Sequence record: NC_073083.1
Reading direction: 5' to 3' (one strand)
Origin: Escherichia phage BF9
Length of the DNA: 44,963 nucleotides
Shown: positions 1,611-44,518 of the stretch, piece by piece
How the letters are laid out: each line of letters starts with the position of its first letter
How positions within the stretch are numbered: position 1 is the stretch's first letter
Made by a program: the position numbers and the translations under genes
Notes under the pieces: model-generated
Told to the model about the DNA's origin: nothing
Seen by the model: only the letters and a program-made list of their open reading frames with translations
Databases searched by the model: none

Positions 1611-1690
1611 AGCTAAATCCTCATAAATTGGTTGCATTCTCGATTGAGCGGTGCAATACTAAAACTCGACCAAATATGGGAGATGATAAC
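1611..1690 (+). promoter_or_regulatory. Candidate promoter for the rightward lipoprotein cassette, containing one TTGGTTGCA motif
   Basis: aaATTGGTTGCATtctcgattgagcggtgcAATACT gives TTGCAT-N17-AATACT, a sigma70-like spacing, immediately upstream of the lipoprotein gene. Confidence 0.35.
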
Positions 1691-17699: not shown

Positions 17700-17750
17700 C
17701 GCTTGCAATCCGCGTATTGGTTGCACTATATTGGTTGCACACCAACCACG
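17700..17750 (+). promoter_or_regulatory. Promoter with tandem TTGGTTGCA motifs driving the rightward gene inside the head module
   Basis: TTGCAAtccgcgtaTTGGTTGCACTATATTGGTTGCACaccaacc gives TTGCAA-N17-CTATAT. The same 21 bp core (CTATATTGGTTGCACACCAAC) recurs in reverse orientation near 28085. Confidence 0.5.
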
Positions 17751-17761
17751 AGGACACACAA

Positions 17762-24996: not shown

Positions 24997-25233
24997 ATTA
25001 ATTCACTTCCAGATTATGGGACCGAGGACAATATACCACGGTCCCTATTGCGGCGGGTTATAGCAATTCGCAAATAACCATGCCGATAAAAGCCGCGGTG
25101 GTCCAGATCGCTAATACCCAAATATCTTTACGTGCCATCTTGATTACTCCTCCAGTTGATTGGTTGCAGTATGGCCCCTGTGTTGGTTGCGAGTCAAGCA
25201 ATAAAAAGCCCGGTTAATTCCGGGCTTAATTGT

Positions 25234-27501: not shown

Positions 27502-27767
27502 TTGCTCAGTCTCCAGTGTTTGCCTACCCGCTCAACGGCGGGCTTCCGGCGTAATGTAATACGTATTCCCATTGGTTGCAAGGAAGTCCGCACCCTGAAA
27601 TCGTGTTGTGCTGCGAACTGGTGCAAGTAGCGAGTCTGCGTCAACGGCTTCACGTCATCGCGATAACACCAGAATACAGATTCGCCATCAACCGCATTCT
27701 CAGCCCATATTCGTATGCAATGCAGTGGAATATGCCACGAAAGCTGTTTCGCTCGTCTGCGGCTCAT
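27498..27767 (-). CDS. Hypothetical early protein (89 aa)
   Basis: Track ORF, translationally coupled to the downstream small gene. Confidence 0.4.
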   Translation of the reverse strand: MSRRRAKQLSWHIPLHCIRIWAENAVDGESVFWCYRDDVKPLTQTRYLHQFAAQHDFRVRTSLQPMGIRITLRRKPAVERVGKHWRLSK

Positions 27768-28067: not shown

Positions 28068-28279
28068 CGTTCAGTCCTCATGTTGGTGTGCAACCAATAT
28101 AGCAGGGTGCCAGGGCGAGCGCAACCAAGATTAATCACGCGCATGAAAAAGTTGATCGCTATCTGCTGTAACTGCAAACCGCATTTTTCACTCAACATAA
28201 TACAACCCGCATTGGTTGCCTAGTTCATCGACGACCGCACTTCGCGTCATGCTGCCGTGTATTTTGCAATCCCCGGATT
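28068..28279 (-). promoter_or_regulatory. Leftward promoter/operator region with several TGCAACCAA motifs
   Basis: Minus strand reads CTATATTGGTTGCACACCAAC (28085..28105), identical to the core at 17727..17747; further copies near 28123 and 28211. Confidence 0.45.
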
Positions 28280-28445
28280 TTATTCAGTCTCAGACGAGGG
28301 GGGCCACTGACCCCCGTCTAGTCTGAAAGACTGGGGTTTGTCCCGCCTGTCCCGCTCCTCTGGAAGCCGCGCCATCCGGGGCGGGACTGGGGTGCTGTCC
28401 CGCTTTGTCCCGCCCCCGGTCTGTCCCGCTTTCTGTCCCGCTTAC
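28280..28445. repeat. Iteron region B: same hairpin leader as region A (one mismatch) followed by 6 or more TGTCCCGC copies and one inverted copy
   Basis: ttattcagtctcagacgaggggggccactgacccccgtctagtctgaaagactggggtttgtcccgcctgtcccgc...ctgtcccgctttctgtcccgc. Lies about 160 bp 3' of the primase-helicase stop; three more GCAACCAAT motifs occupy 28480..28600. Confidence 0.8.
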
Positions 28446-28601
28446 TTTATGCAGTAAAACTGCATAACTATTCATTATATTTACACTACACGGCAACCAA
28501 TACGACCGGATAAAAACACTCAAAATGGCAACCAATGCGCGCAAATTTTAATCTTTTAGCGATATGGGAATTCCCATATCGGCAACCAATACACGCACAA
28601 A

Positions 28602-30876: not shown

Positions 30877-31206
30877 TTACTTCGAAGTTTTGTTATTGCG
30901 TACCCAGGAGCGCACGGTGCTCTGATTAATTCCCGTCAACTCGGCGATCATCGCCCATGACTTCCCCTCATCGCGCAAACGGATAACCTGCTTTTTGTAT
31001 TCTTCCATTTCTTCATTGTGTTTTTGCAGCTTGCTTGCTGCCGTGCCGTTGAGCAATTCCAGCTTCGCGGTAAGCTCCTTCTCCGCACGCGATAATCTGG
31101 ACACTTCAAATAACAGAGTATCCACCGCATTTGTGTAATACCAGGATTTACCCGCTTCGCCGCGGATTGCATTAGATAACACTTCAATTGCTTCTTTGAT
31201 ATTCAT
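30877..31206 (-). CDS. Helix-turn-helix DNA-binding protein (putative transcriptional regulator)
   Basis: 109 aa; C-terminal GKSWAMIAELTGINQSTVRSWVRNN is HTH-like; first gene of the leftward operon. Confidence 0.5.
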   Translation of the reverse strand: MNIKEAIEVLSNAIRGEAGKSWYYTNAVDTLLFEVSRLSRAEKELTAKLELLNGTAASKLQKHNEEMEEYKKQVIRLRDEGKSWAMIAELTGINQSTVRSWVRNNKTSK

Positions 31207-31608
31207 AATTCAGTCTCCTGTTGGTTAATGGCCAACGAAACTACACCCAAAACTGCACGGTGTCAAATCCTTTGGATATTGAAACGGGCGCGCACGCGTG
31301 TAATAATAATTCCCGTCTCATTGTCTCTTATTGGTTAGCGCCGGTGCATTTTGCCTCGGCGCTTTTTTTTTTAAATTAGTTGTTGACACCCATCCTGCAA
31401 CCAATCTATTATTCACCCCGTCGACAGGATGCAGGACGCAAACTGGAGAGGGGCAACGCAGGGGCCGGATCGAAGTGTCAGGATTCCCAACCGTGATTAT
31501 ATAACCAGGTCCACTACCCGAACGGGAGAACGCGTAACCTGGCAATATGTTAAGGCCACCGACGAAGTTAACTGCCGACACCTAAACTAAACCAATCGGA
31601 GATATACC
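31207..31608. promoter_or_regulatory. Divergent control region between the leftward and rightward early operons
   Basis: Plus strand: TTGACAcccatccTGCAACCAATcTATTAT (about 31374..31405). Minus strand: TTGACA-N17-TAGTTT followed by the near-palindrome TTGGCCATTAACCAA (about 31221..31235). About 400 bp with no ORF of 60 codons or more that is not antisense to neighbouring genes. Confidence 0.5.
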
Positions 31609-32127: not shown

Positions 32128-32129
32128 TA

Positions 32130-32160
32130 TATTCCGGCCCGCAGATTAGCGGGCCTCTTT
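32130..32160 (+). terminator. Intrinsic terminator
   Basis: GGCCCGCagattaGCGGGCC followed by TCTTTTT. Confidence 0.6.
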
Positions 32161-32175
32161 TTAGAGGACGAGACA

Positions 32176-32427
32176 ATGGCACGCTTCACGCTAATCGAGG
32201 CGGTGGACTCCCGCGACCAGCGCCCATATTATTGGCTATTCGAACGCATCGGCAGCTTTCAGTCACGCGTTGCCGTAATAGATAAACGCCGTAACACCCC
32301 CGCGCAAATTAAGCGCACCACCTTTATTAACCCCGACTTTTATATTTGGGCGGATTCCAATCTGGAATATGTTCGCTTCGCAGTTGCATCCGAAGCAAAA
32401 ACAATCGACCGCTGGGAGACGAAATAA
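32176..32427 (+). CDS. Hypothetical protein (83 aa)
   Basis: Track ORF with RBS GAGGA. Confidence 0.45.
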   Translation: MARFTLIEAVDSRDQRPYYWLFERIGSFQSRVAVIDKRRNTPAQIKRTTFINPDFYIWADSNLEYVRFAVASEAKTIDRWETK

Positions 32428-32616
32428 ATGGCTATATTCTTTGTTTTATTTCGTTGCCGTATCACCGGCGACGAGCAACCAGAAATTGTTATGAATCAAA
32501 ACTGGAATTGCTGCTGGACGCAAGCCCGAGAACTGGCATCGACCATGAACGAAGCCGCGAAGCGGGCCAATGTTAAACACGACTATTACATTGCTCAATT
32601 TTCAAGGGTGGAATAA
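32428..32616 (+). CDS. Hypothetical protein (62 aa)
   Basis: Track ORF with RBS GGGAGA; tightly packed between neighbours. Confidence 0.4.
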   Translation: MAIFFVLFRCRITGDEQPEIVMNQNWNCCWTQARELASTMNEAAKRANVKHDYYIAQFSRVE

Positions 32617-34046
32617 TGGCGATTAAACCAAAACGTAAAACGCAATCCGGTAGCAACACGGAGCATTCATTACTCGGCCCATCCGGTGCTAAAAAATGGA
32701 TGGGTTGCCCTGCCGCCCTGGTGGTGGAAAAAGATATCCCGAACGAATCCGGGCAAGCGGCGATTAATGGTACGAGTATGCACACCGTATCTGAAGTGGT
32801 GCTAAACCGCATTATCGCCGGGGAGAAGCTGATAACCGCGAAGACTTACAAAGGGTGTTACGTCGAGAACGAAGGTAAGGGACCGGTAAAGGCGCACCCG
32901 AAAGCACCGAAAGGCGGCGTACTGGTCAACGACGACATGGTGAAACAGTGCGACGCGTACATCGACCACTGGCGACCGCTCCTCGAAGTGGCGGAGTTTG
33001 TTCGGCTTGAGATGCGCGCCGATCTTACCCGCGTCCTACACTCTGGCTTCGAGGTCAACGGCAACCGGGTTAAGACGTTCGGTACTGCCGATATGGTCAT
33101 GGTCATGAAGAAGACCGACGGCACGTACATGCTGATTGTTGGCGACCTGAAGACGGGGCGGCATAAGGTCGAGGCGAAAGAAAACAAACAGCTTATGTTG
33201 TACGCGCTCGGCCTGCTGCGCAAGCTGAAAACTATGTACGACATTACGACCGTGCGCCTGGTTATCTTCCAGCCGTATTGCGGTGGGGCGTCGGAGTGGG
33301 ATATTTCGGTAGAAGCCCTGGAGATATTCGCTAAGTTTGCGTCCAAGCGTGCTATCGCCGCCCTGGAAGCGTACGCCCGAGGCAAAAAGGGACTCACCCG
33401 CGCCGACTTCCGACCGAGCGTTGATGCGTGTCAGTGGTGTCGATTTGCGGATCAGTGTAGCGCCCGCGCTAAGGCTGCAATCGACACGATGACCCCACCA
33501 ACGGCAACAGACGAAGACCTGGGCGACGACGTGAGTATTGCGACAGAGGAAGAATGCGCCAATCTCGACCGCAATATGGCCCGCGAAGCCCGCAAAGCGG
33601 CACGACGTGAGAAGCGTGGTAAGAAAGAAGCGGCCCCCGGCGCTATGACCGCCGCGGAACTTCGCAAGGCATATGAAGGTCTAGACGCAATGCGCCAGCA
33701 CATCAAGGCTATCGAGTCCGCGGTATTCAAGGCGGTTATGGCGGGCGATGGCGAATCGCTGGGCCTCAAGATGGTTGCCGGTAAGGAAGGGATCCGCAAG
33801 TGGGCGGACGAAAGCGAAGTGATTGAAATCTTCACGAAGGCCAGGATCAAGCGCGATGTGATGTACAAAGAAACATTACTCAGCCCTACCGATGCCGAAA
33901 AGGTACTGAAGGACGAGAAGCCGAAAGTGTGGGCGAAGCTGTGTGATAAAATCACGCGCGCACCGGCAAAACCGGTATTAGCACCAATCGACGACCCGCG
34001 CCCTGCGTGGTCTGAAGCCACTGACGAGGACTTAAGCAATGAATAA
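32616..34046 (+). CDS. PD-(D/E)xK nuclease with Cys cluster (Cas4/RecB-like, DUF2800-type exonuclease)
   Basis: 476 aa; D...VGDLKTGRHKV...QLMLYALGL core; N-terminal Cys plus C-terminal CQWCRFADQC, the pattern seen in Cas4-like Fe-S nucleases. Confidence 0.55.
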   Translation: MAIKPKRKTQSGSNTEHSLLGPSGAKKWMGCPAALVVEKDIPNESGQAAINGTSMHTVSEVVLNRIIAGEKLITAKTYKGCYVENEGKGPVKAHPKAPKGGVLVNDDMVKQCDAYIDHWRPLLEVAEFVRLEMRADLTRVLHSGFEVNGNRVKTFGTADMVMVMKKTDGTYMLIVGDLKTGRHKVEAKENKQLMLYALGLLRKLKTMYDITTVRLVIFQPYCGGASEWDISVEALEIFAKFASKRAIAALEAYARGKKGLTRADFRPSVDACQWCRFADQCSARAKAAIDTMTPPTATDEDLGDDVSIATEEECANLDRNMAREARKAARREKRGKKEAAPGAMTAAELRKAYEGLDAMRQHIKAIESAVFKAVMAGDGESLGLKMVAGKEGIRKWADESEVIEIFTKARIKRDVMYKETLLSPTDAEKVLKDEKPKVWAKLCDKITRAPAKPVLAPIDDPRPAWSEATDEDLSNE

Positions 34047-34281
34047 AGTATTCGCAATCTTATTGATGTTTGTTATCGGCGCGCTGGGCTTTATCCTGAA
34101 TTGTGTGCAAGGCGTGTTAATGGTGGCGTGGATGATTCGACATCCGACCCGCTGGCTGGATGACGGCTATAGCGAAGCTGCCGTCGATTGGGTGGAGAAG
34201 AACATCAACCGCCCGCCGTTAAGCTGGATCGAGAACGCGACCAACTACGTGACAAGAAATCTTTTTAATGAAAATGCTTGA
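34039..34281 (+). CDS. Small membrane protein (80 aa)
   Basis: Track ORF with a hydrophobic N-terminus (AILLMFVIGALGFIL); 8 bp overlap with the upstream gene. Confidence 0.35.
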   Translation: MNKVFAILLMFVIGALGFILNCVQGVLMVAWMIRHPTRWLDDGYSEAAVDWVEKNINRPPLSWIENATNYVTRNLFNENA

Positions 34282-34371
34282 CCGCTTAGGCGCAACCAAG
34301 TAGATTAGCAACCAAGCCGAACGGGGTGGCTCACAATAACCCCGATACATGTGAAAATGAGGAATTGGAAA

Positions 34372-35100
34372 ATGGCTAAAGTCAACCTGAAAAATGTGCG
34401 CGTATGTTTCCTTAAAATTTGGGAACGCGACACCCCTAAACAGGATGGTCAAAAACCGGCATACCGTGCAGTGATTCTTCTTGATAAAGAAGATCCGCAG
34501 GTGGACAAAGTGGAAGCGGCAGCGCGCGCAGTGCTCACCGACAAGCTGAAATCCGAGAAGAATGCTGATAAGTGGATGGACCGCCACTACGCCCAGGATT
34601 CGAAGGAATGCGCAGTCCGCGACGGTGACGAGCGCGACGAAGTGACCGAAGAATTCGAAGGCATGTTGTACATCAACGCCAAATCGTTCAAACAGCCTAT
34701 CATTCAAACGTCACTCGGCGAGAAGCAGACTGAACAGGGTCTGACCATCGACGGCGACGAGATTGAAGGCCAGGAGATCTACTCCGGTTGTTATTGCAAC
34801 GTGTCCCTTGATATTTGGGCATGGAACAATACCAACGGCAAGGGTCTCGGGGCGGGCTTGCTGGGTCTGCGATTCCGTGAAGACGGCGAAGCCTTCGGAG
34901 GTGGCGGGTCTTCATGTTCCGACGAAGACCTGGACAACGATGACGAAGACGAAAGCCCGCGTAAGTCCAAAAAGTCAAAACGTCGTGATGACGATGACGA
35001 AGACGACAAGCCGCGTAAGTCCAAAAAGTCCAAGCGCCGCGATGACGACGACGAAGACGACGACGAAGACGAAGCACCACGTAAACGTCGCCGCCGTTAA
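34372..35100 (+). CDS. Single-stranded DNA-binding protein (DUF2815-like) with repetitive acidic/basic C-terminal tail
   Basis: Start at MAKVNLKNVRVCF (RBS GAGGA), internal to track ORF 34351..35100; C-terminus carries two copies of PRKSKKSKRRDDDDEDD. Sits between the nuclease and polymerase genes. Confidence 0.5.
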   Translation: MAKVNLKNVRVCFLKIWERDTPKQDGQKPAYRAVILLDKEDPQVDKVEAAARAVLTDKLKSEKNADKWMDRHYAQDSKECAVRDGDERDEVTEEFEGMLYINAKSFKQPIIQTSLGEKQTEQGLTIDGDEIEGQEIYSGCYCNVSLDIWAWNNTNGKGLGAGLLGLRFREDGEAFGGGGSSCSDEDLDNDDEDESPRKSKKSKRRDDDDEDDKPRKSKKSKRRDDDDEDDDEDEAPRKRRRR

Positions 35101-35103
35101 GGG

Positions 35104-35136
35104 CAAAGCCCACTATTCAAGCCCGCTTAATGCGGG
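35104..35136 (+). terminator. Intrinsic terminator
   Basis: AAGCCCGCttaatGCGGGCTT followed by TTT. Confidence 0.6.
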
Positions 35137-35159
35137 CTTTTTAATAGGACAATGAAAAA

Positions 35160-35330
35160 TGCGTATTAAAGCCAGCGAAGTAAAAGTCGGAATGCAAGTA
35201 TGGTCCAAGCTACTGGGGGAATATTTCACAGTTGCCGAGATTCGCAACAACGGCGAAGAAATCACCCTATCCGACGGCATCTTCTCCATGATCGGCAGCG
35301 CTGACGCCGTAGTAAGGATAAAGCAATGAA
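35160..35330 (+). CDS. Hypothetical small protein (56 aa), not in ORF track
   Basis: MRIKASEVKVGMQVWSKLLGEYFTVAEIRNNGEEITLSDG...; its TGA stop overlaps the polymerase ATG (ATGA). Confidence 0.35.
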
Positions 35331-37617
35331 AGACTTCGAACGCCTGTTTCTCGACACCGAGACATTCAGCGGGGTGGACCTGAAGAAAGTAGGCGCGTAC
35401 GCCTACGCGGAGCACCCATCCACCGAAATTATGATTTGCACCTACGCCATCGACGAGGGCCGCGTGCAGACATGGGATTGCACTGAATCCCCTAAAATGC
35501 CGCGTGAACTGCGCAAGGCGCTCCGTCAGGTATCCCGCAAGAAAGCAAAAATCGTGATGGCTAACGGCCTCCTGTTCGACCGCCTGGTTATCCGCGAGAA
35601 GTGGGGTATCGACCTGCCGGTAAGCCAGATCGAAGATACAATGATTATGGCCTTTCGCCACGCGCTTCCGGGTAGCCTCGATATGCAGTGTCAGGTTCTG
35701 GGCGTTGACGCAGAGCACGCGAAGGATAAGGCGGGCAAGGCGCTGATTAAACGATTCTGTAAGCCTACCCCTAAGACCTACAAAATCCGCCGCTACACCC
35801 GCGAGACTCACCCGGAAGAATGGGCCAAATTTTTGCGCTATGCCGCGCTGGATATTATCGCAATGCGTGAAGTCTACTGGCGCATACCGGACTGGGGTAA
35901 TACTCCGAAGGAAGATGAAATCCTGCTTATCGACCAGTTGATCAACGACCGCGGCTTCTATGTGGACGTTGCCCTGGCGAACGCCGCGATCAAAGCGGTG
36001 CAGGCGCATAAGGAAGAATTGAAAGAAGAAGCCTGGGAGCGATTTGGCGGTAAGCTGACCGGCAATGACTTCCTGCCAATCCTGCGTGATATTGCGCCAG
36101 CATTCACAATACACAACGCGCAGAAATCCACACTTAACGACCTGCTTGAAGACCCGGACTTCCCCGACGAAGGCAAAGCGCTTATCGAAATGCGCCTCGG
36201 CGCGTCATCAACGGCATCGACTAAATACAATCCGCTCGTTAATGGCCTGTCTGCCGATGGTCGCCGCCGTGGGTGTCTTCAGTATGGTGGTGCAAAGCGC
36301 ACGCTGCGCTGGGCCGGTAAAGGCTTCCAGCCGCAAAACCTGGCACGCGGCGAGTATAGCGACGACCATGAAGGTAAGATTAAGCGCCGCGAGGGCGAAA
36401 GCGACGTCGCTTTCTGGGTCAGGTCGCACATGCTTACCAACGGCATCAACTCCCTGTTACGCGGGACCGCGCACTGGGCGTATGACATATCTAAGCTGAC
36501 CGCCTCGACCGTTCGCGGGTGCATCATTCCGGCGAAGGGCAAGAAGTTTGTCGTCGCGGACTACTCCAACGTGGAAGGGCGCGGCCTTGCCTGGATCGCT
36601 GGCGAGAAAACCGCGCTAATGGTGTTTAAGGCCGGTCGCGATATCTATTGCGAGACTGCCGGTAAGATGTTCGGCCTTGACCCGGATTACATCAAAGCCA
36701 ACCGCAAAGACTTGCGACAGATCGGTAAGGCGTGTGAGTTGGGACTGGGCTATGGCGGCGGCGTCGCGGCGTTCTTGCAGTTCGCTAAAAACCTGGGCCT
36801 CGACCTTTACACTATGGCGGACGTGATGAAAGGCACGTTCCCGGATCACATTTGGGCGGCGGCGAAACGCGGCTATGAGTACGCCCGCATTAACGAAGCG
36901 AAACGCCCGCCGAAGCCTGGCAAGAAAGACGAGCGCCCAACATACATACTGCCGAAAAACGTATGGCTGACGTGCGACGCGATCAAACGTATGTGGCGTG
37001 AGGCGCACCCGAAGACGGTAGCCTTTTGGGCCGAGCTTGAGGACGCGGTGTTGTGTGCAATCCGCAATCCGGGCAAAGCATACTGGGCGGGCGCGAACGT
37101 TCGCCTGGACGGTAGAAAAGCGCTCAAAATTGTTCGAACGAAGGCGAAGCATGACCCAACCTTCGACGAGGAGCGAGACGACCCGAACGCGGCAGGGTGG
37201 TGGCTTACAATTGAGTTGCCGTCAGGGCGCATCATGAGCTACCCCGGCATCGCACTGTCTGTCACGACCGAGATCGACGAAGACACCGGCAAGAAGTGCA
37301 CCAGTACCCGCATCAAATATCAGGGCGAGAATCAGACGACGCGCCAGTGGGGATTCCAGTACACCTACGGCGGCAAACTTACGGAGAACATCGTGCAAGC
37401 GTTGTGTCGCGATATTCTCGCGTGGTCCATGCCTGGCGTTGAAGCTGCGGGCTATGAAATCGTCCTGTCAGTGCACGATGAATTGATCACCGAAGTGCCG
37501 GACACTGACGACTACACGACCGAGGAACTTTGCGCGCTGATGTGCGACCTGCCGATTTGGGCGAAAGGCTTCCCACTTGCCGCAGAGGGCGATTGTATGT
37601 ATCGATACCGCAAGTAG
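35326..37617 (+). CDS. DNA polymerase, family A, with 3'-5' exonuclease domain
   Basis: 763 aa; FLDTET (Exo I), RQIGKACELGLGYGGG (motif B) and SVHDELITEV (motif C). Confidence 0.9.
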   Translation: MKDFERLFLDTETFSGVDLKKVGAYAYAEHPSTEIMICTYAIDEGRVQTWDCTESPKMPRELRKALRQVSRKKAKIVMANGLLFDRLVIREKWGIDLPVSQIEDTMIMAFRHALPGSLDMQCQVLGVDAEHAKDKAGKALIKRFCKPTPKTYKIRRYTRETHPEEWAKFLRYAALDIIAMREVYWRIPDWGNTPKEDEILLIDQLINDRGFYVDVALANAAIKAVQAHKEELKEEAWERFGGKLTGNDFLPILRDIAPAFTIHNAQKSTLNDLLEDPDFPDEGKALIEMRLGASSTASTKYNPLVNGLSADGRRRGCLQYGGAKRTLRWAGKGFQPQNLARGEYSDDHEGKIKRREGESDVAFWVRSHMLTNGINSLLRGTAHWAYDISKLTASTVRGCIIPAKGKKFVVADYSNVEGRGLAWIAGEKTALMVFKAGRDIYCETAGKMFGLDPDYIKANRKDLRQIGKACELGLGYGGGVAAFLQFAKNLGLDLYTMADVMKGTFPDHIWAAAKRGYEYARINEAKRPPKPGKKDERPTYILPKNVWLTCDAIKRMWREAHPKTVAFWAELEDAVLCAIRNPGKAYWAGANVRLDGRKALKIVRTKAKHDPTFDEERDDPNAAGWWLTIELPSGRIMSYPGIALSVTTEIDEDTGKKCTSTRIKYQGENQTTRQWGFQYTYGGKLTENIVQALCRDILAWSMPGVEAAGYEIVLSVHDELITEVPDTDDYTTEELCALMCDLPIWAKGFPLAAEGDCMYRYRK

Positions 37618-37665
37618 CGGAAACGTCAGGCAATATTGTCTGGCGTTTTCTTTTTCGGGGGGTAT

Positions 37666-38268
37666 ATGAAACATTGTGGGCGTTGTAATACGGATAAAGA
37701 TGAGTCCGCTTTCAACAAGGGTCAGTCGTGGTGTGCCAAATGCATGGCGGCGTATAAGAAAGAGAGACGTGATAAGGAAAGAGGAGCGCCGCCGCGCGAA
37801 GTATGGCGAGAGTATACCGGGGAGATCGTAACGTGCCGTCAGTGCGGGGAACGCAAGCCGCTTACGCCGGAAAACTTCCGGCCCGGAAACCGGGCAAGCC
37901 AGTCACACATTCGTAAAGAATGCAGGTCGTGCTCTAATAAGTCCCGCCGTGAGTACAACCACCGGACACCAGAGATCCGAGCTTACTATAAGCTCTTTCA
38001 GTACCGTAAGGCGGACGAAAGGAAGGGGCTAACCACCGACCTAACCACCGAGGACGTGCTACGCCTTACTTCTCAACCATGCGCATACTGCGGATTCACC
38101 GGCGACAATGGCGCGGACCGACTCGACAACGCAGTAGGCCATACGAAAGATAACTGCGTGCCGTGCTGCGTAGAGTGCAACATAGCCCGCGGGGACCGGT
38201 TTACCCCGGACGAAATGAAGAAGTTTATCGGACCGGCCATCGCGGCCGTAAGGAAAAGCCGACAATGA
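37666..38268 (+). CDS. HNH endonuclease-like, Cys-rich (zinc finger) protein
   Basis: Several CxxC pairs (CGRC, CAKC, CRQC, CRSC, CAYC, CCVEC) and DRLDN...GHT...N, HNH-like; start at MKHCGRC with RBS GGGGGG. Confidence 0.5.
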   Translation: MKHCGRCNTDKDESAFNKGQSWCAKCMAAYKKERRDKERGAPPREVWREYTGEIVTCRQCGERKPLTPENFRPGNRASQSHIRKECRSCSNKSRREYNHRTPEIRAYYKLFQYRKADERKGLTTDLTTEDVLRLTSQPCAYCGFTGDNGADRLDNAVGHTKDNCVPCCVECNIARGDRFTPDEMKKFIGPAIAAVRKSRQ

Positions 38269-38543
38269 CACCAGAAGGCAAGATACAAAGTCACCTGATG
38301 AAGCTGGTTAAAGCCGTTGGGGGATTCTGCCGAAAACTGGCATGGGAGGGGCGCGCAGGTGCGCCCGACCTGATTATTATCATCAACGGCAAAATAGTGT
38401 TCGTCGAAGTGAAGCGCCCCGGTGGCAAACCGAAGCCGCACCAGGTACGAGAACATGAGCGAATGGTCCGACGAGGTGCGGACGTTCGCGTCATCGACAA
38501 CATAGCCGACTGTGATTTATTGGTTGCTGAATTGGTCGCGTAG
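38265..38543 (+). CDS. VRR-NUC domain nuclease (PD-(D/E)xK)
   Basis: 92 aa; ...GAPDLIIIINGKIVFVEVKRPGGKPKPHQ... gives a D...E-V-K...Q pattern. Confidence 0.55.
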   Translation: MTPEGKIQSHLMKLVKAVGGFCRKLAWEGRAGAPDLIIIINGKIVFVEVKRPGGKPKPHQVREHERMVRRGADVRVIDNIADCDLLVAELVA

Positions 38544-38583
38544 CGGTATAGTGGGCCGGTTAGCACTATCGAGGATTTTAGAA

Positions 38584-38757
38584 ATGGTTGAAGAAAAACG
38601 TTGTAGTAATTGCGGTTGCGTCAAGCCGCTTTCCCAGTTCCACAAATACACCGGTAAGACTGCGCGCAGCCCAGACGGGTATCGGGCCGAGTGCAAATCG
38701 TGCCGCAATAAAAAAGAGCGCGAACGGCAGCGCCGCTACCGCGCAGCGCAAGAATAA
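38584..38757 (+). CDS. Small zinc-ribbon protein (57 aa)
   Basis: CSNCGC...CKSCRN pairs; internal start of track ORF 38512..38757. Confidence 0.4.
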   Translation: MVEEKRCSNCGCVKPLSQFHKYTGKTARSPDGYRAECKSCRNKKERERQRRYRAAQE

Positions 38758-38762
38758 TTAAT

Positions 38763-38790
38763 ATGGCGGGCTTGTCCCGCCATTTTTGGG
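38763..38790 (+). terminator. Intrinsic terminator
   Basis: TGGCGGGCttgtCCCGCCA followed by TTTTT. Confidence 0.6.
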
Positions 38791-38800
38791 AGACATGACG

Positions 38801-39019
38801 ATGAAAGAACATTATCGACTCACCACACTGGGCGAATGCAAACCTGGCGATCGCGTATGGTTTATCGCTGGCATGAATAACCCGCTGCCGTTGACGGTGT
38901 GCTGGCAAAAATTTAAGAGCTTCCGGGCGACGGGTGTGCACATCGGTCACCGCACCAACTACGACGCCACAAAAAGGAACTGGAACAGTGAGACAGAAGT
39001 CTGGAAAAAGGCGGAATAA
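38801..39019 (+). CDS. Hypothetical protein (72 aa)
   Basis: Internal ATG (MKEHYRL) of track ORF 38786..39019 with RBS GGGAGA. Confidence 0.4.
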   Translation: MKEHYRLTTLGECKPGDRVWFIAGMNNPLPLTVCWQKFKSFRATGVHIGHRTNYDATKRNWNSETEVWKKAE

Positions 39020-39023
39020 AGAT

Positions 39024-40448
39024 ATGGCACGATTCCGACGCCGCGAATATCAGAAGTTGATAACCGCGTTCATCCTCAAGCATAAGCGATGTAATATCTG
39101 GGCGACAATGGGTTCCGGTAAAACCGGCGCGACAATGTGGGCGCTGAATAAAATGTTCCAGACGGGTATCCTGTCCTACCAGGAGGACCGCGTACTGGTG
39201 CTGGCCCCGCTGCGCGTTGCGTCAGGTACGTGGCCCCCGGAGCAAGAAAAATGGCGATTCCCCGCCCTGCTGGTAGTAGACGGCACAGGACCAGAGAAGG
39301 ACCGCATAGCCGCGCTGGAGAGTAACGCTAATGTGGTTTGTGTTAACTATGATGTAGTTGAGTGGCTGGTTGACTATTACGGCGATGCGTGGCCCTTTAC
39401 GGTCGTTGTTGCCGATGAATCGACTAAGCTGAAAGGCTACCGAAGCAAGCAGGGAAGTAAGCGCGCACGCGCACTGGCGGCGATTGCACATAAGCACGTC
39501 AAGCGCTGGATTAACCTGACCGGCACACCAGCGCCAAACGGGCTGAAAGACTTATGGGGTCAGACGTGGTTTGTCGACGGTGGCGAACGCCTCGGCAGTA
39601 GCTATACGGCATTTACGGATCGCTGGTTTATTAGCAAGCCTGTTAAGCCTGGCAGCTTCACGATGCAGCACGCCCCGCTAAAGAACTCCGAGAAAGAAAT
39701 ACAACAACGCCTGTCTGACGTATCACTAACCGTTGACGCGGCTGAATACTTCGGATGTGACAAGCCAATATATACGCCGGTTGTTGTGGATCTGCCGAAG
39801 AAAGCCCGCAAGATTTACGACCAGTTTGAAAGCGAGCTATTTGCCGAACTGGAAAGCGGAACAGTGGAAGCGGCGAACGCGGCATCGAAGACCATCAAGT
39901 GCCTTCAGCTTGCTTCCGGCGCTGTGTATAAGGTGGACGAAGACGGCGAACGGACCGACGAGTGGGTGAAGATTCACGACGCGAAGCTGGACGCGCTGGA
40001 AAGTATCGTGGAGGAATTGAACGGGGCGCCGTTGCTCGTTGCGTATCAGTATAAGCATGATCTGGCACGTCTTAAGAAGAAATTCCCGCACGGCGTCGCG
40101 ATGGGTAAGGGTAAGCAAGGAAATAAGGATATGGAAGCGTGGAACAGGGGTGAGATCCCCATCATGTTCGCGCACCCGGCATCGGCGGGTCACGGCCTTA
40201 ACTTGCAGGATGGCGGACACCACCTTGCTATATTCTCAGACACCTGGAACTATGAGCACTTTGCGCAGATCGTGGAGCGTATCGGGCCAGTTCGCCAGAT
40301 GCAAGCCGGACACCCTCGTCCCGTATTCGTCTACATTATCCAGGCGCGCGGCACACTGGACGAACTGGTTGCCGAACGTCGCGACAGTAAGCGCGATATT
40401 CAGGATGACCTGATGGAATACATGAAAGCTAAAAAGGCGCGCAAATGA
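39024..40448 (+). CDS. Superfamily 2 DNA helicase (SNF2/DEAD-like)
   Basis: Walker A MGSGKTG, DEAH-like VVADEST, and a C-terminal helicase domain; start at MARFRRREYQ, internal to track ORF 38934..40448. Confidence 0.7.
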   Translation: MARFRRREYQKLITAFILKHKRCNIWATMGSGKTGATMWALNKMFQTGILSYQEDRVLVLAPLRVASGTWPPEQEKWRFPALLVVDGTGPEKDRIAALESNANVVCVNYDVVEWLVDYYGDAWPFTVVVADESTKLKGYRSKQGSKRARALAAIAHKHVKRWINLTGTPAPNGLKDLWGQTWFVDGGERLGSSYTAFTDRWFISKPVKPGSFTMQHAPLKNSEKEIQQRLSDVSLTVDAAEYFGCDKPIYTPVVVDLPKKARKIYDQFESELFAELESGTVEAANAASKTIKCLQLASGAVYKVDEDGERTDEWVKIHDAKLDALESIVEELNGAPLLVAYQYKHDLARLKKKFPHGVAMGKGKQGNKDMEAWNRGEIPIMFAHPASAGHGLNLQDGGHHLAIFSDTWNYEHFAQIVERIGPVRQMQAGHPRPVFVYIIQARGTLDELVAERRDSKRDIQDDLMEYMKAKKARK

Positions 40449-41140
40449 TAATTTGGTCATTGTTCGACGGCAGCGGCTTGATGATTGAGCGTGCGGCCGA
40501 GATGGGGCATAAGTGTTATTGCTTCAACTACTCCGAAGCCGACCACGGGTCGTACCTGGACTACCGGATTTATGGGCGCGGTATCCGATATCGTAATGAG
40601 TTTATCGATCTGGACTTCGTGGACCGCGCGATGAATGGTGATTTCGGCACGCCGGATATCATTTATGCATTCCCGCCGTGTACGGATCTGGCGGTTAGCG
40701 GTGCGCCAGCGTTCCCGCGCAAACGCGCCCGCGACCCTGCCTTCCAGCTTAAGGCGGTGCGCACCGCGAAGATCGCCGCTTACCTGGGTGATTTCTTTGA
40801 AGTGCCGTATATGATTGAGAATCCGCGCAGCGTGCTATCAACTCAATGGCGTAAGCCTGACCACTCGTTTGACCCGTGGGAGTATGGCGGATATCTGCCG
40901 GAGGATGACGTACACCCGTTATTCCCTGAATACATCAACGCCCGCGATTCATATCCGAAGCTGACCTGCTTATGGACCGGCAACGGCTTCCGTATGCCAG
41001 AGAAGAAACCTGTTTTCGTTGAAAAAGGGTACTCGAAGCAGTATAGTCGCCTCGGAGGCAAATCTGCCCGCACCAAATTAATCAGGTCGCTCACCCCGCG
41101 CGGCTTCGCGATAGCGGTTAACGAGGAAAATTTAAAATGA
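40445..41140 (+). CDS. Putative DNA (cytosine-5) methyltransferase-like protein, short (231 aa)
   Basis: LFDGSG (motif I-like), AFPPCTDLAVSG (PC catalytic motif-like), MIENPRS (ENV-like); shorter than typical C5 methyltransferases. Confidence 0.4.
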   Translation: MIIWSLFDGSGLMIERAAEMGHKCYCFNYSEADHGSYLDYRIYGRGIRYRNEFIDLDFVDRAMNGDFGTPDIIYAFPPCTDLAVSGAPAFPRKRARDPAFQLKAVRTAKIAAYLGDFFEVPYMIENPRSVLSTQWRKPDHSFDPWEYGGYLPEDDVHPLFPEYINARDSYPKLTCLWTGNGFRMPEKKPVFVEKGYSKQYSRLGGKSARTKLIRSLTPRGFAIAVNEENLK

Positions 41141-41460
41141 ATACTGCATTCGACGCCATCGACTTTTCAGTGGCAATGACCAATCAGCTTTTTTCCTACG
41201 ACAGTAAAACGGGCGTTATCCGCCTTAAGTCAACCGGCTGCAAGATTGGCAACCTCAATACTGCCGATGGCGGTACTCGTATCGAATGCAACGGCAAGAC
41301 GCTGTCTGGCGCACGCGTGGCGTGGATTATCGCGACCGGCAATACAATTCCACCAGGCTTCGCCGTTGTGTGCCGTCAGCGCACGCCAGGCCATTACGGC
41401 AACCGGATCAGCAATCTTTATTTGGTGGACGTTGCACGCGACCCGAACTTTTATGCGTAA
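41137..41460 (+). CDS. Hypothetical protein (107 aa), possibly a degenerate HNH-like DNA-binding domain
   Basis: Track ORF; the pattern ...NGKTLSGARVAWIIATGNTIPPG...NRISNL resembles HNH_3-type endonucleases but lacks the His. Confidence 0.3.
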   Translation: MNTAFDAIDFSVAMTNQLFSYDSKTGVIRLKSTGCKIGNLNTADGGTRIECNGKTLSGARVAWIIATGNTIPPGFAVVCRQRTPGHYGNRISNLYLVDVARDPNFYA

Positions 41461-41541
41461 ATTGGTTGCATAATCATATTGGTTGCATTATATTGAGGGT
41501 GTCCGGTTTGGACGCCCTTTTTAATACCTGGAGACGACACG
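41461..41541 (+). promoter_or_regulatory. Promoter with tandem TTGGTTGCA motifs
   Basis: aaATTGGTTGCATaatcataTTGGTTGCATTATATTgag gives TTGCAT-N17-TATATT. Confidence 0.5.
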
Positions 41542-41784
41542 ATGAGATCATTATTTTTCGACTACGACGGCGACCTTCGATTTTGGGTGATACTCACCCT
41601 CATGTTTGCCGTTTGTATTTTCGTACCTACCGCGGCTATTTACTACACGGAACGCTACGAATGCAAGACCGTGTATGCCGAGCAAACTGGCCGTAATACC
41701 CAATGGCGCTATGGAACTTGCTGGGTCGAGAAGGACGGCAAATTTATTCCACGCGATGAAATCCGCACTACGGAGATTAAATAA
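41542..41784 (+). CDS. Small membrane protein (80 aa)
   Basis: One transmembrane helix (FWVILTLMFAVCIFVPTAAIYY). Confidence 0.45.
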   Translation: MRSLFFDYDGDLRFWVILTLMFAVCIFVPTAAIYYTERYECKTVYAEQTGRNTQWRYGTCWVEKDGKFIPRDEIRTTEIK

Positions 41785-42243
41785 ATGAAAATTTTACAAG
41801 AAGAAAAAGCATACTGGGCCGCGCAATGCCTCGAAGCCCGCGAACAGGCCGACCGTGCGAACGCGTTGGCGGACACCAACCAGGCGCTATATGAAGGCGA
41901 GGAGAAGGCGCGCAAGGAATTAGAGGAGCGCTTCGATCTGCTGTATGAGTTGATGGGTATTATGCAGCGCACCGGATACACCACCACCGTCGCGCTAAAC
42001 CGCATCACTGCCGAAGGTCTGCGCGAGCATTGCAAACGTGCCGAGGAGTACGTGCGTCCGAAGGGTCGTCAGTCTAAGATCGACCGGAAAGACCTGGTGC
42101 TTATGGCGTGGCGCGCAAACGGTAGCTACTACTCCGATTGCCGACCGCTTAGCGTCGAGGGAGCAAAGCGCCGGCAACGCGTTCTAAACAGTGGTAAGAA
42201 AATTGCCCTGTACGCGATAGATCAAGACCATGCAGAAGAGTGA
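41785..42243 (+). CDS. Hypothetical protein (152 aa), coiled-coil N-terminus
   Basis: Track ORF, tightly coupled to its neighbours. Confidence 0.45.
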   Translation: MKILQEEKAYWAAQCLEAREQADRANALADTNQALYEGEEKARKELEERFDLLYELMGIMQRTGYTTTVALNRITAEGLREHCKRAEEYVRPKGRQSKIDRKDLVLMAWRANGSYYSDCRPLSVEGAKRRQRVLNSGKKIALYAIDQDHAEE

Positions 42244-42715
42244 GCAGAAAGATAGCTGGCGCACACCGCCAGCTTTATTTAAACCGCTTCGTCGGAAATA
42301 CCGATTCCGTTACGATATGGCGGCGAGCGACGCCAATCATCTGCTACCGCGTTACTTCACGGCGGAGCACAGCGCGCTTGATGTGGACTGGGCAGAGTTG
42401 AAAGGGTGGAAATGGTGCAATCCGCCGTATTCCGACCCGCTGCCGTGGGTGGAATGCGCAGCGCACGGTCGCCGGACTGTCATGCTACTGAATCAGGATA
42501 CGTCGACGAAGTGGGCGAAGTTGGCCCGGAAGACTGCAAACCTGATAATTCTTCTGGACTGGCGGATACGATTTATACATGCTGTCACCGGCGAAGTCGG
42601 TCCGAGCAATAACAAGTGCCAGCAATTGATAATCTTTGACGAAGCGCCGCCCATCGGCAGCGCACAAATTGAAATAATGAGCGAGAGTGAGTTACATGAA
42701 TATCTTAATCGTTGA
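42230..42715 (+). CDS. DNA N6-adenine methyltransferase (phage Dam-like)
   Basis: 161 aa with the NPPY motif (WCNPPYSD) and a conserved N-terminal WRTPP. Confidence 0.6.
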   Translation: MQKSEQKDSWRTPPALFKPLRRKYRFRYDMAASDANHLLPRYFTAEHSALDVDWAELKGWKWCNPPYSDPLPWVECAAHGRRTVMLLNQDTSTKWAKLARKTANLIILLDWRIRFIHAVTGEVGPSNNKCQQLIIFDEAPPIGSAQIEIMSESELHEYLNR

Positions 42716-42920
42716 CCGCGACCCCGAGGTCGTATACCGGATTCAAAAAGACTACGGCATCGACCAGCGCCGCGATCGTGTGAAGCGCGTGTCACGTCCC
42801 GAACATATCCAGGGCCTGGATCTTACCGGCTGGCTTGTCATGACACAGCGATGCCATTTCGTATGCAACTCCATTACCGCGCGCAGCGCCCGATACACCC
42901 TTATTGAGAGCTTAAAATGA
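42696..42920 (+). CDS. Hypothetical protein (74 aa)
   Basis: Internal ATG (MNILIVD) of track ORF 42687..42920. Confidence 0.35.
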   Translation: MNILIVDRDPEVVYRIQKDYGIDQRRDRVKRVSRPEHIQGLDLTGWLVMTQRCHFVCNSITARSARYTLIESLK

Positions 42921-43387
42921 AACTACTGATTTGTGATCTGGATGGCGTTATTAACGGTTCAAGTGATGCGCGCGCCGACCTGGTGCCGGGGATAAAAACG
43001 AAATCAACATTTTGGGCGAAGTGGCACAAAGCGCACGTACGCGAAGACCTGAACATGGATATGCTGCCGCTGTTGCGCATGTACAAAGAGCAAGGCTTCG
43101 AGATCGCGTATCTGACGAACCGGCAGCGCGAATGTTGGGACACCACCGCCGAGCAATTGGAGGTCTTCCCCGTAGGTCGATTGTTCATGCGCCACATGCT
43201 GGACGACACCCCGCCGCCAGAGTTTAAGGCGTGCGCCGTTTTCAAAATGGTCTGCTATGCGGACGTGTCGGAACTGGTCATCATTGAAGACTGTCCGAAG
43301 AACATCGCGGCAATTCGTCGGGCGTGTGGTGATTTGGTCCCGAAAATTTACGCAATAAACGTTGCAAAATTCACTTGCAACCAATAG
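42917..43387 (+). CDS. HAD-superfamily hydrolase-like protein (possible nucleotidase/phosphatase)
   Basis: N-terminal LLICDLDGVI matches HAD motif I (DxDG). Confidence 0.45.
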   Translation: MKLLICDLDGVINGSSDARADLVPGIKTKSTFWAKWHKAHVREDLNMDMLPLLRMYKEQGFEIAYLTNRQRECWDTTAEQLEVFPVGRLFMRHMLDDTPPPEFKACAVFKMVCYADVSELVIIEDCPKNIAAIRRACGDLVPKIYAINVAKFTCNQ

Positions 43388-43400
43388 GTTGGTTGCACTA
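43370..43400 (+). promoter_or_regulatory. Promoter/operator with inverted TGCAACCAA / TTGGTTGCA pair
   Basis: cacTTGCAACCAAtaggTTGGTTGCACTATAGtt: an inverted repeat that also gives TTGCAA-N17-CTATAG. Confidence 0.45.
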
Positions 43401-43450
43401 TAGTTAACGCGTCGGGAGGCAATACGGCCTCCCATAAACAGGGCCACATC

Positions 43451-43900
43451 ATGAAAGCATACGAATACTGCAAAAACGCCGCCACCACTATGGAACAGCG
43501 CGGAAAAGAAAACGGCTATGGCAACGCGAAAGAAGAACGCATCGCTAAACAAATCGCTGCCGTGTTTAACGCGCTTACCGGTCGCGACCTGACCGAGCAA
43601 GAAGCCTGGACCTTCTTGATTTGCCTGAAGCTGGTACGCCAGCACCGTAAGCACCGGGAAGACAATATCGTCGACCTGGTAGCGTATGCGGCCTTGCTGG
43701 GCGAGTCGTACATGACCGTACACGACGAGATTCAGATCGATACAACGGCAGCGCAATACGATAGACTTAAATACGGCGGCGCATTCCCCCCGGGCAAGAC
43801 TACGGTCGTGCTCACCGGCGAAGACGGATCCAAAATCCTCATGACGCCGGAAGACTTCCGCAACATGGAAAAAACACTGGTACGTAGCGCACTGAAATAA
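43451..43900 (+). CDS. Hypothetical protein (149 aa)
   Basis: Track ORF downstream of the promoter-like motif pair. Confidence 0.45.
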   Translation: MKAYEYCKNAATTMEQRGKENGYGNAKEERIAKQIAAVFNALTGRDLTEQEAWTFLICLKLVRQHRKHREDNIVDLVAYAALLGESYMTVHDEIQIDTTAAQYDRLKYGGAFPPGKTTVVLTGEDGSKILMTPEDFRNMEKTLVRSALK

Positions 43901-43942
43901 TTCTAATCGCGGGCCGAGGCCCGCATCAATGAGGACCACACG

Positions 43943-44518
43943 ATGTACGGCGAATATGAAATATCCGGTAAACAATTCCACCTGGCGGCAATGATCGCAA
44001 GCATCGAGTTTGACCAGTGGCGCTTAAAGTCCGACTCGTGCAAGCAAAGCCGTCTTGTCGGTGTTCTGGGCGAGATGTTTGCAGGTATGTACCTTGAGGG
44101 GCAGGCGGGCGGGCGTAGTTGCATACCGCAAGGCTTACTAATGCGTACCGGCCTGTTTAGCGCCAATACCATCGACCGCGGCGATATTATCATGGTAGGT
44201 AAGCGCAAGGTTAAATCTGGCCCCGACTTCCGCGAGCATGTGGTCGATGCCGTATGGACCTACGAGGTTAAGGCCACCAGCGGCATCCGTCGTGGACTGG
44301 TTGAGGCGCGTTGCGCTCGCGAATATCTGACCCGTCGCGTTGCCGGTGTTATCCTGGTGGGCGTATCGTTCGGGCAACATAGCGCGCACGGCGTGATTGA
44401 GGATATTGCGGAACCATACGTGATTGTGAACGACTGGCCCCTGGTGGAAGTGGAAGGAAAGGAATATTACGAAAGCCCGTTGGTACGGCGTAAAATGGAC
44501 TGGGAAAACTTAAACTAA
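43943..44518 (+). CDS. Hypothetical protein (191 aa), possibly PD-(D/E)xK-like
   Basis: Track ORF with RBS GAGGA; weak D...E-V-K pattern in GDIIMVG...DAVWTYEVKAT; last gene of the rightward block. Confidence 0.45.
   Translation: MYGEYEISGKQFHLAAMIASIEFDQWRLKSDSCKQSRLVGVLGEMFAGMYLEGQAGGRSCIPQGLLMRTGLFSANTIDRGDIIMVGKRKVKSGPDFREHVVDAVWTYEVKATSGIRRGLVEARCAREYLTRRVAGVILVGVSFGQHSAHGVIEDIAEPYVIVNDWPLVEVEGKEYYESPLVRRKMDWENLN

Follow-up and report, generated by a model that had tools for sequence, protein, structure and literature searches.

A repeated asymmetric box in the non-late promoters of the Dhillonvirus BF9 and its candidate helix-turn-helix reader

Genome setting and the site at 41461-41541

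The window analysed here, the whole 44,963-bp stretch of Escherichia phage BF9 (NC_073083.1), is a complete Dhillonvirus genome (an HK578-like, virulent siphophage of E. coli), with its cut point inside the tail-tip gene. This study concerns a short asymmetric sequence, the box, that recurs through the genome and had been flagged at positions 41461-41541 by an original prediction made from the letters alone. Few E. coli siphophages are isolated as often as Dhillonviruses, which are present in the BASEL collection and serve in defence-system and phage-therapy work. Phage JLBYU60 and more than 130 further records share ~94% identity with the window, and the gene layout was established by mapping the JLBYU60 proteins onto it. 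The minus strand carries, from 31206 to 1, the genes for a helix-turn-helix (HTH) protein and a helicase-primase, small genes, and the lysis, packaging, head and tail genes. The plus strand, from ~31600 to 44518, carries those for recombination, the single-stranded DNA-binding protein (SSB), DNA polymerase, helicase and methylases, and two small plus-strand islands are located at 1691-2880 and 17762-18526. Non-coding DNA makes up 7.2% of the genome. No integrase or repressor module is annotated in the related records and there are no prophage relatives. In public Dhillonvirus records the annotation comprises no more than three consensus promoters and no repeats.

At the flagged site two direct plus-strand copies of the 9-mer TTGGTTGCA are built into one promoter, P41466. 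The first (41462..41470) lies over the -35, a position termed slot A, and its TTGCA together with the following T makes the hexamer TTGCAT at 41466-41471; this copy is conserved in the relatives L011, L018 and L002. The second (41479..41487) occupies the spacer, slot B, and ends 1 nt before the -10 hexamer TATATT at 41489-41494. Directly after the -10 there is a hairpin (41495-41519; 10-bp stem, -17.2 kcal/mol, z = -2.6) followed by a T-run, and the gene behind it has a Shine-Dalgarno (SD) sequence and an ATG at 41542. The predicted start of P41466 falls within the 5' arm of this hairpin, an arrangement in which incoming transcripts would be terminated and the promoter's own transcript would be free of the hairpin.

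Distribution, geometry and conservation of the box

The consensus of the box is (T)ATTGGTTGC(A>C,G); it is asymmetric, 9-10 bp long and present in ~20 copies. The 9-mer TTGGTTGCA has 11 exact matches in the window compared with 0.51 +/- 0.67 in shuffled sequence, and none of 100 shuffles reached 11, so the frequency is not due to chance, as had been proposed; with one mismatch there are 29 matches against 11.4 expected. The 8-mer core TTGGTTGC has 22 matches against 1.9 +/- 1.3, with a maximum of 7, in 300 third-order Markov simulations. The base 5' of the core is A in 15 of 20 copies, and the base 3' is A (11), C (4), G (3) or T (2). No 10-mer is more frequent than ATTGGTTGCA in the window, and the same is true of JLBYU60, LM40P1, PTXU06 and HK578. 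Two other words, GCTGCCGT and CGCTGCCGT, are also among the commonest 8- and 9-mers of the window; they are strand-biased (the 8-mer 25 against 6), which is probably a codon or coding-strand effect.

The predicted intergenic enrichment was borne out, with 17 of the 22 core copies lying mostly within the 7.2% of DNA that is non-coding (binomial p = 7e-16). The five copies outside it are at 38520, 43376, 27572, 7085 and 13538. Those at 38520 and 43376 are in the last codons of a gene and overlap the promoter of the next one, that at 27572 is intragenic and supplies the -35 of an internal promoter, and those at 7085 and 13538 are ordinary coding matches, about the number that chance predicts. All the sites named in the original prediction proved real to within a few bases, save one placed at 31386, which is truly at 31396 on the minus strand; the intergenic siting given for them holds for most but not for 27572, inside a gene, or 43376, in last codons, and the list lacked 25183 (a GCG form) and 38520. 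Twenty copies are non-chance: 16 in promoters and four of a second, origin-type form. Relative to local transcription ~10 sites are direct and ~8 inverted, and the spacings between paired boxes are 9, 12-17, 22-23, 31-37, 47 and 54 bp, the majority of the pairs being direct.

The 16 promoter boxes are shared by 11 sigma-70-type promoters, seven of which hold two boxes. These promoters were called as consensus matches: each has a TTGNNN hexamer, a spacer of 16-18 nt and TANNNT, AATACT or CATACT, followed by an SD sequence and an ATG, and their hexamers are kept in relatives. Three slots are used. In slot A the box covers the -35, and the hexamer is either the box's own TTGCAx or a T joined to the TGCAA of an inverted box; seven of the 11 -35 hexamers are of this sub-optimal, box-supplied TTGCAx type. 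Slot B is the spacer: boxes there stop 1-2 nt short of the -10 (up to 4 nt in relatives) and may face either way, those at 17717, 41479 and 43389 being direct and those at 31396 and 34291 inverted. In slot C, again in either orientation, the box overlaps the end of the -10 and the start region. Over eight genomes, and counting orthologous promoters that are not independent of one another, direct copies start at offsets of -27 (25 copies), -10 (14) and +4 (12) from the -10 hexamer, and inverted copies at -21/-22, -10/-9 (14) and +6/+7.

The proposed fixed promoter layout is by these sharp peaks stronger than had been claimed. Its literal form, TTGCAW-N8-TTGGTTGCA-YTATAK, occurs just twice (17703 and 43375), the gap at 41466 being N7 and not N8. 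A sigma-70 scan unbiased with respect to the box returned five intergenic matches that contain it, including the top one, TTGACA-18-TATTAT (11/12).

The box is under purifying selection. In ten intergenic alignments of up to 18 distinct genomes, 88% of box columns are invariant compared with 68% of other columns (Fisher p = 9e-8), and the comparison is conservative since the other columns include hexamers, SD sequences and gene ends. At the early promoter P31383R the bases between the -35 and the box vary (CCCATCC, CCC-TTC, CCCCACA), as do those at P17717 (TCCGCGTA, TGCGTATG, ATTGGCTAA). LM40P1 (81% identity) has boxes at orthologous sites with different neighbouring bases, and conservation reaches beyond the bases that sigma-70 reads, for example to TTGG 5' of the -35. 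The observations that bear most directly on mechanism are two orientation flips at P43375: slot B holds TTGGTTGCA here and its reverse complement TGCAACCAA at the same place in JLBYU60, and the slot A copy is inverted here and direct in LM40P1.

The box is also found in three metagenomic relatives (L023, L024 and L026) with ~71-72% nucleotide identity to the window. TTGGTTGC is the first-ranked 8-mer in L023 and L026 and the second in L024, the copy numbers across this set being nine (6 kb), 13 (20 kb) and 13 (11 kb). In their early promoters the spacer is taken up entirely by a pair of abutting inverted boxes with a spacing of 9 bp (TTGACGCAACCAATGCAACCAATCTATTAT). A scan of viral contigs for paired boxes returned coding tandem repeats in unrelated viruses only.

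Box promoters, the origin-like region and box-less promoters

The central early region has two divergent promoters with one box in common. The leftward promoter P31397L leads to the HTH and helicase-primase genes; its slot A box (31396..31404, minus strand) makes the -35 TTGCAG at 31400-31395, and its -10 is TAATTT at 31378-31373. The same box sits inverted in slot B of the rightward promoter P31383R, between TTGACA (31383-31388) and TATTAT (31407-31412) in an 18-nt spacer. P31383R (plus strand) is the best sigma-70 match in the genome (11/12) and is annotated as a promoter in the HK578 record, by consensus match alone and with the repeat unmentioned. Further along the plus strand, P34278 serves the SSB/DNA polymerase operon. 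Its hexamers are TTGACC (34278-34283) and TAGATT (34301-34306), an inverted TTGGTTGCG variant (34291..34299, minus strand) that is invariant in 13 genomes occupies slot B, and an inverted TTGGTTGCT variant (34307..34315, minus strand) occupies slot C.

Next to this region, the leader 3' of the strong early promoter (31445-31496, extending to ~31590) shares 52 bp at 92% identity with an unannotated gap of Warwickvirus (swan01, ityhuna and tunus; Drexlerviridae), the likeness being patchy over ~150 bp. It has no Rfam match and no significant fold, and could be a small unannotated gene (open reading frame 31429-31590) or a shared regulatory leader. At 31279-31365 on the plus strand there is a box-less promoter, TTGAAA-17-AATAAT with TG before it, and ~30 nt on a strong terminator (GCGCCGGTGCATTTTGCCTCGGCGC and T10; -16.9 kcal/mol, z = -2.8). 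This unit is nearly invariant in 14 genomes and would produce a predicted ~60-nt RNA antisense to the leader of the HTH/helicase-primase operon.

Box promoters are also found at accessory genes. P1628 has a direct slot A box (1628..1636, plus strand), the -35 TTGCAT at 1632-1637, a 17-nt spacer and the -10 AATACT at 1655-1660, and drives a 73-aa lipoprotein gene (1691-1912, plus strand; ATG 1691) with an LSGC lipobox, which probably encodes a Cor/Llp-type superinfection-exclusion protein. P17717, with TTGCAA at 17703-17708 and TATATT at 17727-17732, holds a slot B box (17717..17725, plus strand) and a slot C box (17731..17739, plus strand) that covers the final two -10 bases and the +1 region and forms part of a TTGGT-N5-ACCAA palindrome just 5' of the SD sequence of the Nmad5 gene. 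The Nmad5 gene (PF18757, E = 1e-54) is one of the genes of nucleotide-modification flavour at 17762-18526, 42917-43387 and 43451-43900; the others are a HAD/acid-phosphatase match (weak, below the cut-off) and DUF6378. Dam-like and Dcm-like methylases are encoded by the phage as well, and together these genes hint at an uncharacterised DNA or nucleotide modification pathway. P43375 has an inverted box (43376..43384, minus strand) that with T43375 makes the -35 TTGCAA, a direct slot B box (43389..43397, plus strand) and the -10 TATAGT at 43399-43404. P38524 has a TTGGTTGCT variant in slot A (38520..38528, plus strand; -35 TTGCTG at 38524-38529, -10 TATAGT at 38547-38552) and a degenerate second box, TTGGTCGC, in its spacer at 38532-38539. 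The JLBYU60 start of the Lar-like gene here (window 38551) falls within the P38524 -10, and the true start is likely ATG 38585.

Three box promoters lie within the long minus-strand array. P28121 has a TTGGTTGCG variant in slot A (28120..28128, minus strand; -35 TTGCGC at 28124-28119) and a slot C box (28089..28097, minus strand; -10 TATATT at 28101-28096) in the same TTGGTTGCACACCAAC module as at 17731. The internal promoter P27581 is made by an inverted box (27572..27580, plus strand), which with T27581 gives the -35 TTGCAA, followed after a 17-nt spacer by TACATT at 27558-27553; the orthologous box site is retained in L002. P25197 has two inverted boxes, one in slot C (25160..25168, plus strand) abutting the -10 CATACT (25173-25168), and a TTGGTTGCG variant (25183..25191, plus strand) abutting the -35 TTGACT (25197-25192). 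It leads to a 26-aa hydrophobic peptide (MARKDIWVLAIWTTAAFIGMVICELL; 25061-25138, minus strand) for which the mapped JLBYU60 proteins offer no counterpart, and then to a phosphoesterase gene.

The four origin-type copies, (C/T)ATTGGTTGCC boxes of the form ...CATTGGTTGCC, are located in the 537-bp gap after the helicase-primase gene, where no conserved promoter is found. Three are direct TTGGTTGCC copies on the minus strand, numbered here in order from the helicase-primase stop codon: the first (28581..28589) belongs to a duplicated 54-bp unit into which the end of the helicase-primase gene also falls, and the second (28527..28535) and third (28492..28500) follow. The fourth is inverted and lies beyond the GCGGGACA array: the box at 28212 belongs to the plus-strand 13-mer CGCATTGGTTGCC (28208..28220), which repeats 28527-28539 perfectly in inverted orientation. 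GCC-form boxes of this type are kept at the same position even in distant relatives. Between them there are an AT-rich stretch, two palindromes and six GCGGGACA iterons. The first palindrome, GATATGGGAATTCCCATATC (28560-28579), is perfect and 20 bp long, and the arms of the second, TTATGCAG-N5-CTGCATAA (28447-28467), are invariant in 18 genomes; both are placed between the origin-type boxes and the iterons.

The iterons, GCGGGACA(A/G), number 12 against 2.1 expected and form clusters at 28339-28441, just 3' of the helicase-primase gene, and 11887-12144, between the tape-measure and tail-chaperone genes. A ~165-bp segment containing iterons and a long hairpin is duplicated (28250-28450 / 11790-11990, 86% identity), and the two copies do not differ over a long central stretch that spans the hairpin. 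Relatives at ~71% identity retain the iteron word. The two clusters look like a replication origin and a second cis site, by analogy with P4 ori/crr.

A separate set of promoters has the extended -10 sequence TGnTAnnnT. Five intergenic matches (at least 5/6) were found, all on the late-gene strand: at holin (26469, TGATATAGT), phosphoesterase (25038, TGGTATATT), terS (23606, TGTTATAAT) and tape-measure (11809, TGATACAAT) genes, and at hyp52, the last of these being the box promoter P28121. Most are conserved in other genomes. In the three checked, those of holin, terS and the tape-measure gene, no box was found even with one mismatch, and no TTGGTTGC. Since these late promoters are box-less, the box marks the non-late ones. 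The promoter of holin shares sequence with the 5' arm of the terminator before it.

Candidate reader, proposed mechanism and comparison with known systems

The 109-aa HTH protein (30877..31206, minus strand), the first gene product of the leftward early operon, is a reasonable candidate for the reader of the box, as the original prediction had suggested. Residues 65-106 score above the Pfam cut-offs for HTH_23 (29.6 bits, cut-off 24.6), Sigma70_r4_2 (28.3, 25.7) and HTH_28 (27.1, 25.0). In the AlphaFold2 model (mean predicted local distance difference test score 88.7) a short N-terminal helix precedes a 58-residue helix (22-79) and HTH helices at 84-91 and 95-107, and the predicted tri-helical HTH superposes locally at 0.6-1.6 A on the DNA-bound HTH of DeoR, serine recombinases/resolvases and NarL/LuxR. 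Sequence and profile searches of the PDB returned coiled-coil and HTH likeness only. Across Pfam, PHROGs and NCBIfam it is the sole DNA-binding domain found among the ~30 small or unknown proteins scanned, which are not every open reading frame. In public records the protein is named 'transposase', 'resolvase', 'Gam' or 'HTH protein'.

The HTH family is confined to Dhillonvirus-like phages, the same restricted distribution as that of the box, and is absent from 185,579 bacterial and archaeal species genomes. Domain and box are conserved together, and all true relatives retain both unchanged. Among all relatives the N-terminal 45 residues are hypervariable and residues 47-106 almost invariant, with G81-N104 varying at position 95 alone; for the 71%-identity relatives, identity is 30-55% in other small early proteins and 50-66% in the helicase-primase C-terminus. 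Such freezing of the HTH domain would be expected of a regulator tied to ~20 sites. No remote HTH homologue with an altered box was found: the IMG/VR sequences L021 and L022 (33-34% identity) are AT-rich unrelated phages without the repeat, and their likeness to the HTH protein is that of a generic HTH. The promoter of the HTH gene has a box over its -35, the same box that lies in the spacer of the divergent strong promoter, which suggests autoregulation.

The TTGGT-N5-ACCAA palindromes (17731-17745, 28083-28097 and 31222-31236) lie directly 5' of the SD sequences of the Nmad5 gene, hyp52 and the HTH gene. The RNA fold of this sequence is weak (-5.2 kcal/mol, z = -0.8), so any function it has is more likely that of a DNA site, perhaps through a second binding mode of the HTH protein.

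The box is likely a protein-binding operator. The original prediction had offered a promoter class or a shared operator; the shared operator fits better, and a class recognised as such fits worse, because the same slot is used in either orientation, with a flip in place in JLBYU60, because the box covers the -35, the spacer or the -10/+1, where a bound protein would exclude polymerase, because four copies flank the iteron array without a conserved promoter, and because conservation exceeds the bases read by sigma-70. If the box is an operator, the 109-aa protein is probably its binder. Occupancy likely represses, as a protein at any of the slots would compete with host RNA polymerase. The dimer that had been envisaged on the tandem and inverted pairs is loosely supported; the varied and mostly direct spacings disfavour a rigid symmetric dimer and favour HTH domains that dock independently or a flexible dimer.

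Protein binding, the identity of the binder, the sign of the regulation and its timing are what we infer in the following scheme. Host RNA polymerase would fire the box promoters right after infection, driving replication, nucleotide-metabolism and accessory ('moron') genes. The HTH protein would accumulate, probably as a dimer through its long helix with HTH domains docking independently, and then turn the box promoters down, its own included. The late lysis, packaging and tail genes, with box-less extended -10 promoters (TGnTAnnnT), would escape this shut-down. The helicase-primase gene has no intrinsic terminator after it, and the origin-type boxes may therefore be roadblocks or insulators that keep transcription of its operon out of the iterons; a part in origin function is the alternative. 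Taken as a whole, the chain of operator, HTH binder and autoregulated repression of early and middle transcription is put forward tentatively, its chance lying at or a little below even. A bolder version, in which one flexibly tethered 109-aa dimer both shuts early and middle promoters and insulates or licenses the origin through the CATTGGTTGCC boxes, so coupling shut-off to origin firing, is unlikely; if true, the same logic might explain the unexplained intergenic repeats of T1-like phages.

Several points weigh against autoregulated repression by the HTH protein. A repressor at nearly all the non-late promoters of a virulent phage is plausible at most, and at slot A the box may have an activating role. 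The genome shows no excess of promoter-like hexamer pairs in general, and the offset counts share the non-independence stated above. The GCGGGACA iterons are an equally conserved DNA motif that also needs a binder, and since the HTH gene adjoins the helicase-primase gene its product could bind these instead. The fold search with the HTH protein returned no significant global match (all E >= 0.75). HK578 has a diverged HTH allele with a similar recognition helix (INRSTIRQW compared with INQSTVRSW) and yet the same box, which is compatible with the model and does not support it. Literature searches covering any Dhillonvirus found no start sites, binding assays or time-resolved transcriptomes.

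Alternative explanations can be weighed against the same evidence. That the box is a positive promoter element, through which a phage factor, possibly the HTH protein itself, recruits or re-targets host polymerase to a MotA-like promoter class, would account for the commonest slot lying exactly over the -35, for seven of 11 -35s being the sub-optimal TTGCAx supplied by the box, for the sharply fixed positions relative to the -10 and for the HTH protein exceeding the Sigma70_r4_2 cut-off with a weak likeness to region 4 of extracytoplasmic function sigma factors. It is nevertheless improbable: both orientations occur in one slot and flip between relatives, boxes beside the -10 and over the start would put a bound protein where it should be a hindrance, and four have no conserved promoter nearby. 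A box is present even in the strongest promoter, TTGACA-18-TATTAT, which requires no activator and has two boxes in distant relatives, and no MotA- or AsiA-like family match was found in the ~30 proteins scanned. An operator with a different binder, whether a small early protein, a terminal domain of the helicase-primase or a host factor, the HTH protein then perhaps reading the GCGGGACA iterons, deserves slightly more weight but is still rather unlikely. Most small early proteins have no recognisable family, there are two conserved DNA motifs and one identified HTH, and the helicase-primase has ~350 N-terminal and 220 C-terminal residues without an assigned domain. On the other side, the 30-55% conservation of the other early proteins contrasts with the near-identity of the HTH domain, the HTH gene's own promoter has a box, and there are no iterons near the HTH gene. 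Among host factors, the half-site of E. coli CytR contains GTTGCA, but the conserved ATTGG half of the box falls outside it, and host CytR/CRP control was rejected since CytR-type regulation requires CRP sites and none lie near the boxes. The box promoter module 17690-17765 is moreover absent from 5,426 complete E. coli genomes.

Two further explanations are very improbable. A loading site for a processive antitermination factor would match slot B, which lies between the -35 and the -10 like the Q-binding element of lambda PR', as well as the hairpin and T-run that follow P41466 at once and the richness of the genome in terminators (31 found against 18.8 expected, last third of the genome). 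Read-through is however unneeded, every transcription unit being served by a promoter that overlaps the preceding terminator or comes just behind it, and the start predicted for P41466 would already leave its transcript without the terminator. P41466 is the only box promoter directly followed by such a hairpin, no Q-family match was found in the scanned proteins, and the slot A, slot C and origin boxes do not fit. The repeats might also be recombination or module-boundary sequences, or a spreading promoter cassette, without a regulatory binder. The same box-promoter module does have different cargo genes in different phages, with an extra gene after P17717 in L001 and L003 and after P25197 in L011, and a different -10 and cargo at P1628 in L002. 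Against this, 8-9 bp of identity is too short for homologous exchange, the box is conserved and not the surrounding module, and the slot precision and orientation flips point to selection on function in place.

Some candidates were rejected outright. A function at the RNA level is opposed by the lack of an Rfam family or tRNA, a weak fold and the presence of the box in both orientations relative to transcription. Sigma-54/NtrC-like sites, the DnaA box, Chi and methylase or nuclease targets, considered from the sequence, misfit in spacing or sequence, and the intergenic promoter placement opposes them.

Literature searches on the motif, on Dhillonvirus or HK578 promoters and on transcriptomes gave no description of the box, and the string TTGGTTGCA returned primers only. 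The box regulon is apparently undescribed, and systems in which a phage HTH protein acts on dispersed operators are familiar, so the surprise for specialists is moderate. What is gained for Dhillonviruses, whose gene regulation was previously undescribed, is a simple, testable switch, a candidate for the master regulator, and a promoter map in which eleven box promoters stand apart from a late, extended -10 class without boxes. In phage engineering these could offer safe insertion sites, tunable promoters and orthogonal repressor/operator parts.

Known systems share parts of this arrangement. The C1 protein of phage P1 reads dispersed, asymmetric 17-bp operators, single or paired and in either orientation, that overlap the promoters of many operons; the many scattered asymmetric sites over promoters in either orientation are alike, but P1 is temperate and no similarity to the 283-aa C1 is evident here. 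Lambda Cro and CI act on 17-bp pseudo-palindromes at two control regions only, OR and OL. The small HTH protein from the first gene of an early operon, the sites over divergent early -35/-10 elements and the self-shut-down proposed here recall them, whereas the present site is asymmetric and lies over eleven promoters and an origin region. The MotA box of T4 is likewise a 9-bp phage-specific box with sigma-70-type promoters and a good -10, but is found at about -30 in one orientation, replaces the -35 and activates, whereas the Dhillonvirus box uses three slots in two orientations and leaves the -35 in place.

The closest analogue in behaviour is the operator/stoperator system of cluster A mycobacteriophages (L5 gp71 and the TipsytheTRex repressor), in which a monomeric HTH repressor reads more than 20 asymmetric 13-bp sites (PMC9283540). 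Both have a short asymmetric site in ~20 copies in a siphophage, at promoters and short intergenic gaps, and a small HTH reader, which here is a candidate, in place of a symmetric dimer on a palindrome. In cluster A the orientation strictly follows transcription and a reversed site loses function (PMC9283540), whereas the Dhillonvirus box is found in both orientations and flips between relatives. Most cluster A sites are elongation roadblocks of a temperate immunity system, whereas here 16 of 20 are in promoter cores and neither an annotated integrase nor prophage relatives are found; the repressor there is a 183-aa monomer with two DNA-binding domains, compared with 109 aa, a long helix and one HTH.

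By relatedness the closest analogue is the intergenic repeat of T1-like phages, Dhillonviruses having been described as relatives of Drexlerviridae (PMC8594841). T1, TLS and Stevie carry a 21-22 nt asymmetric intergenic direct repeat of unknown role in 16-21 copies (PMC4319613, PMC11447400). These are likewise virulent small siphophages with many terminators and few obvious promoters. Their repeat aaATAGCACnnnTTGnTAAAA (consensus ATAGCACnnnTTGnTAAAA) has no match in the window with up to three mismatches. It runs one way relative to transcription, while the Dhillonvirus box is bidirectional, shorter, interleaved with the -35 and -10 hexamers and provided with an identifiable candidate binder. 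The box system offers a tractable entry to the similar unexplained repeats of these related phages.

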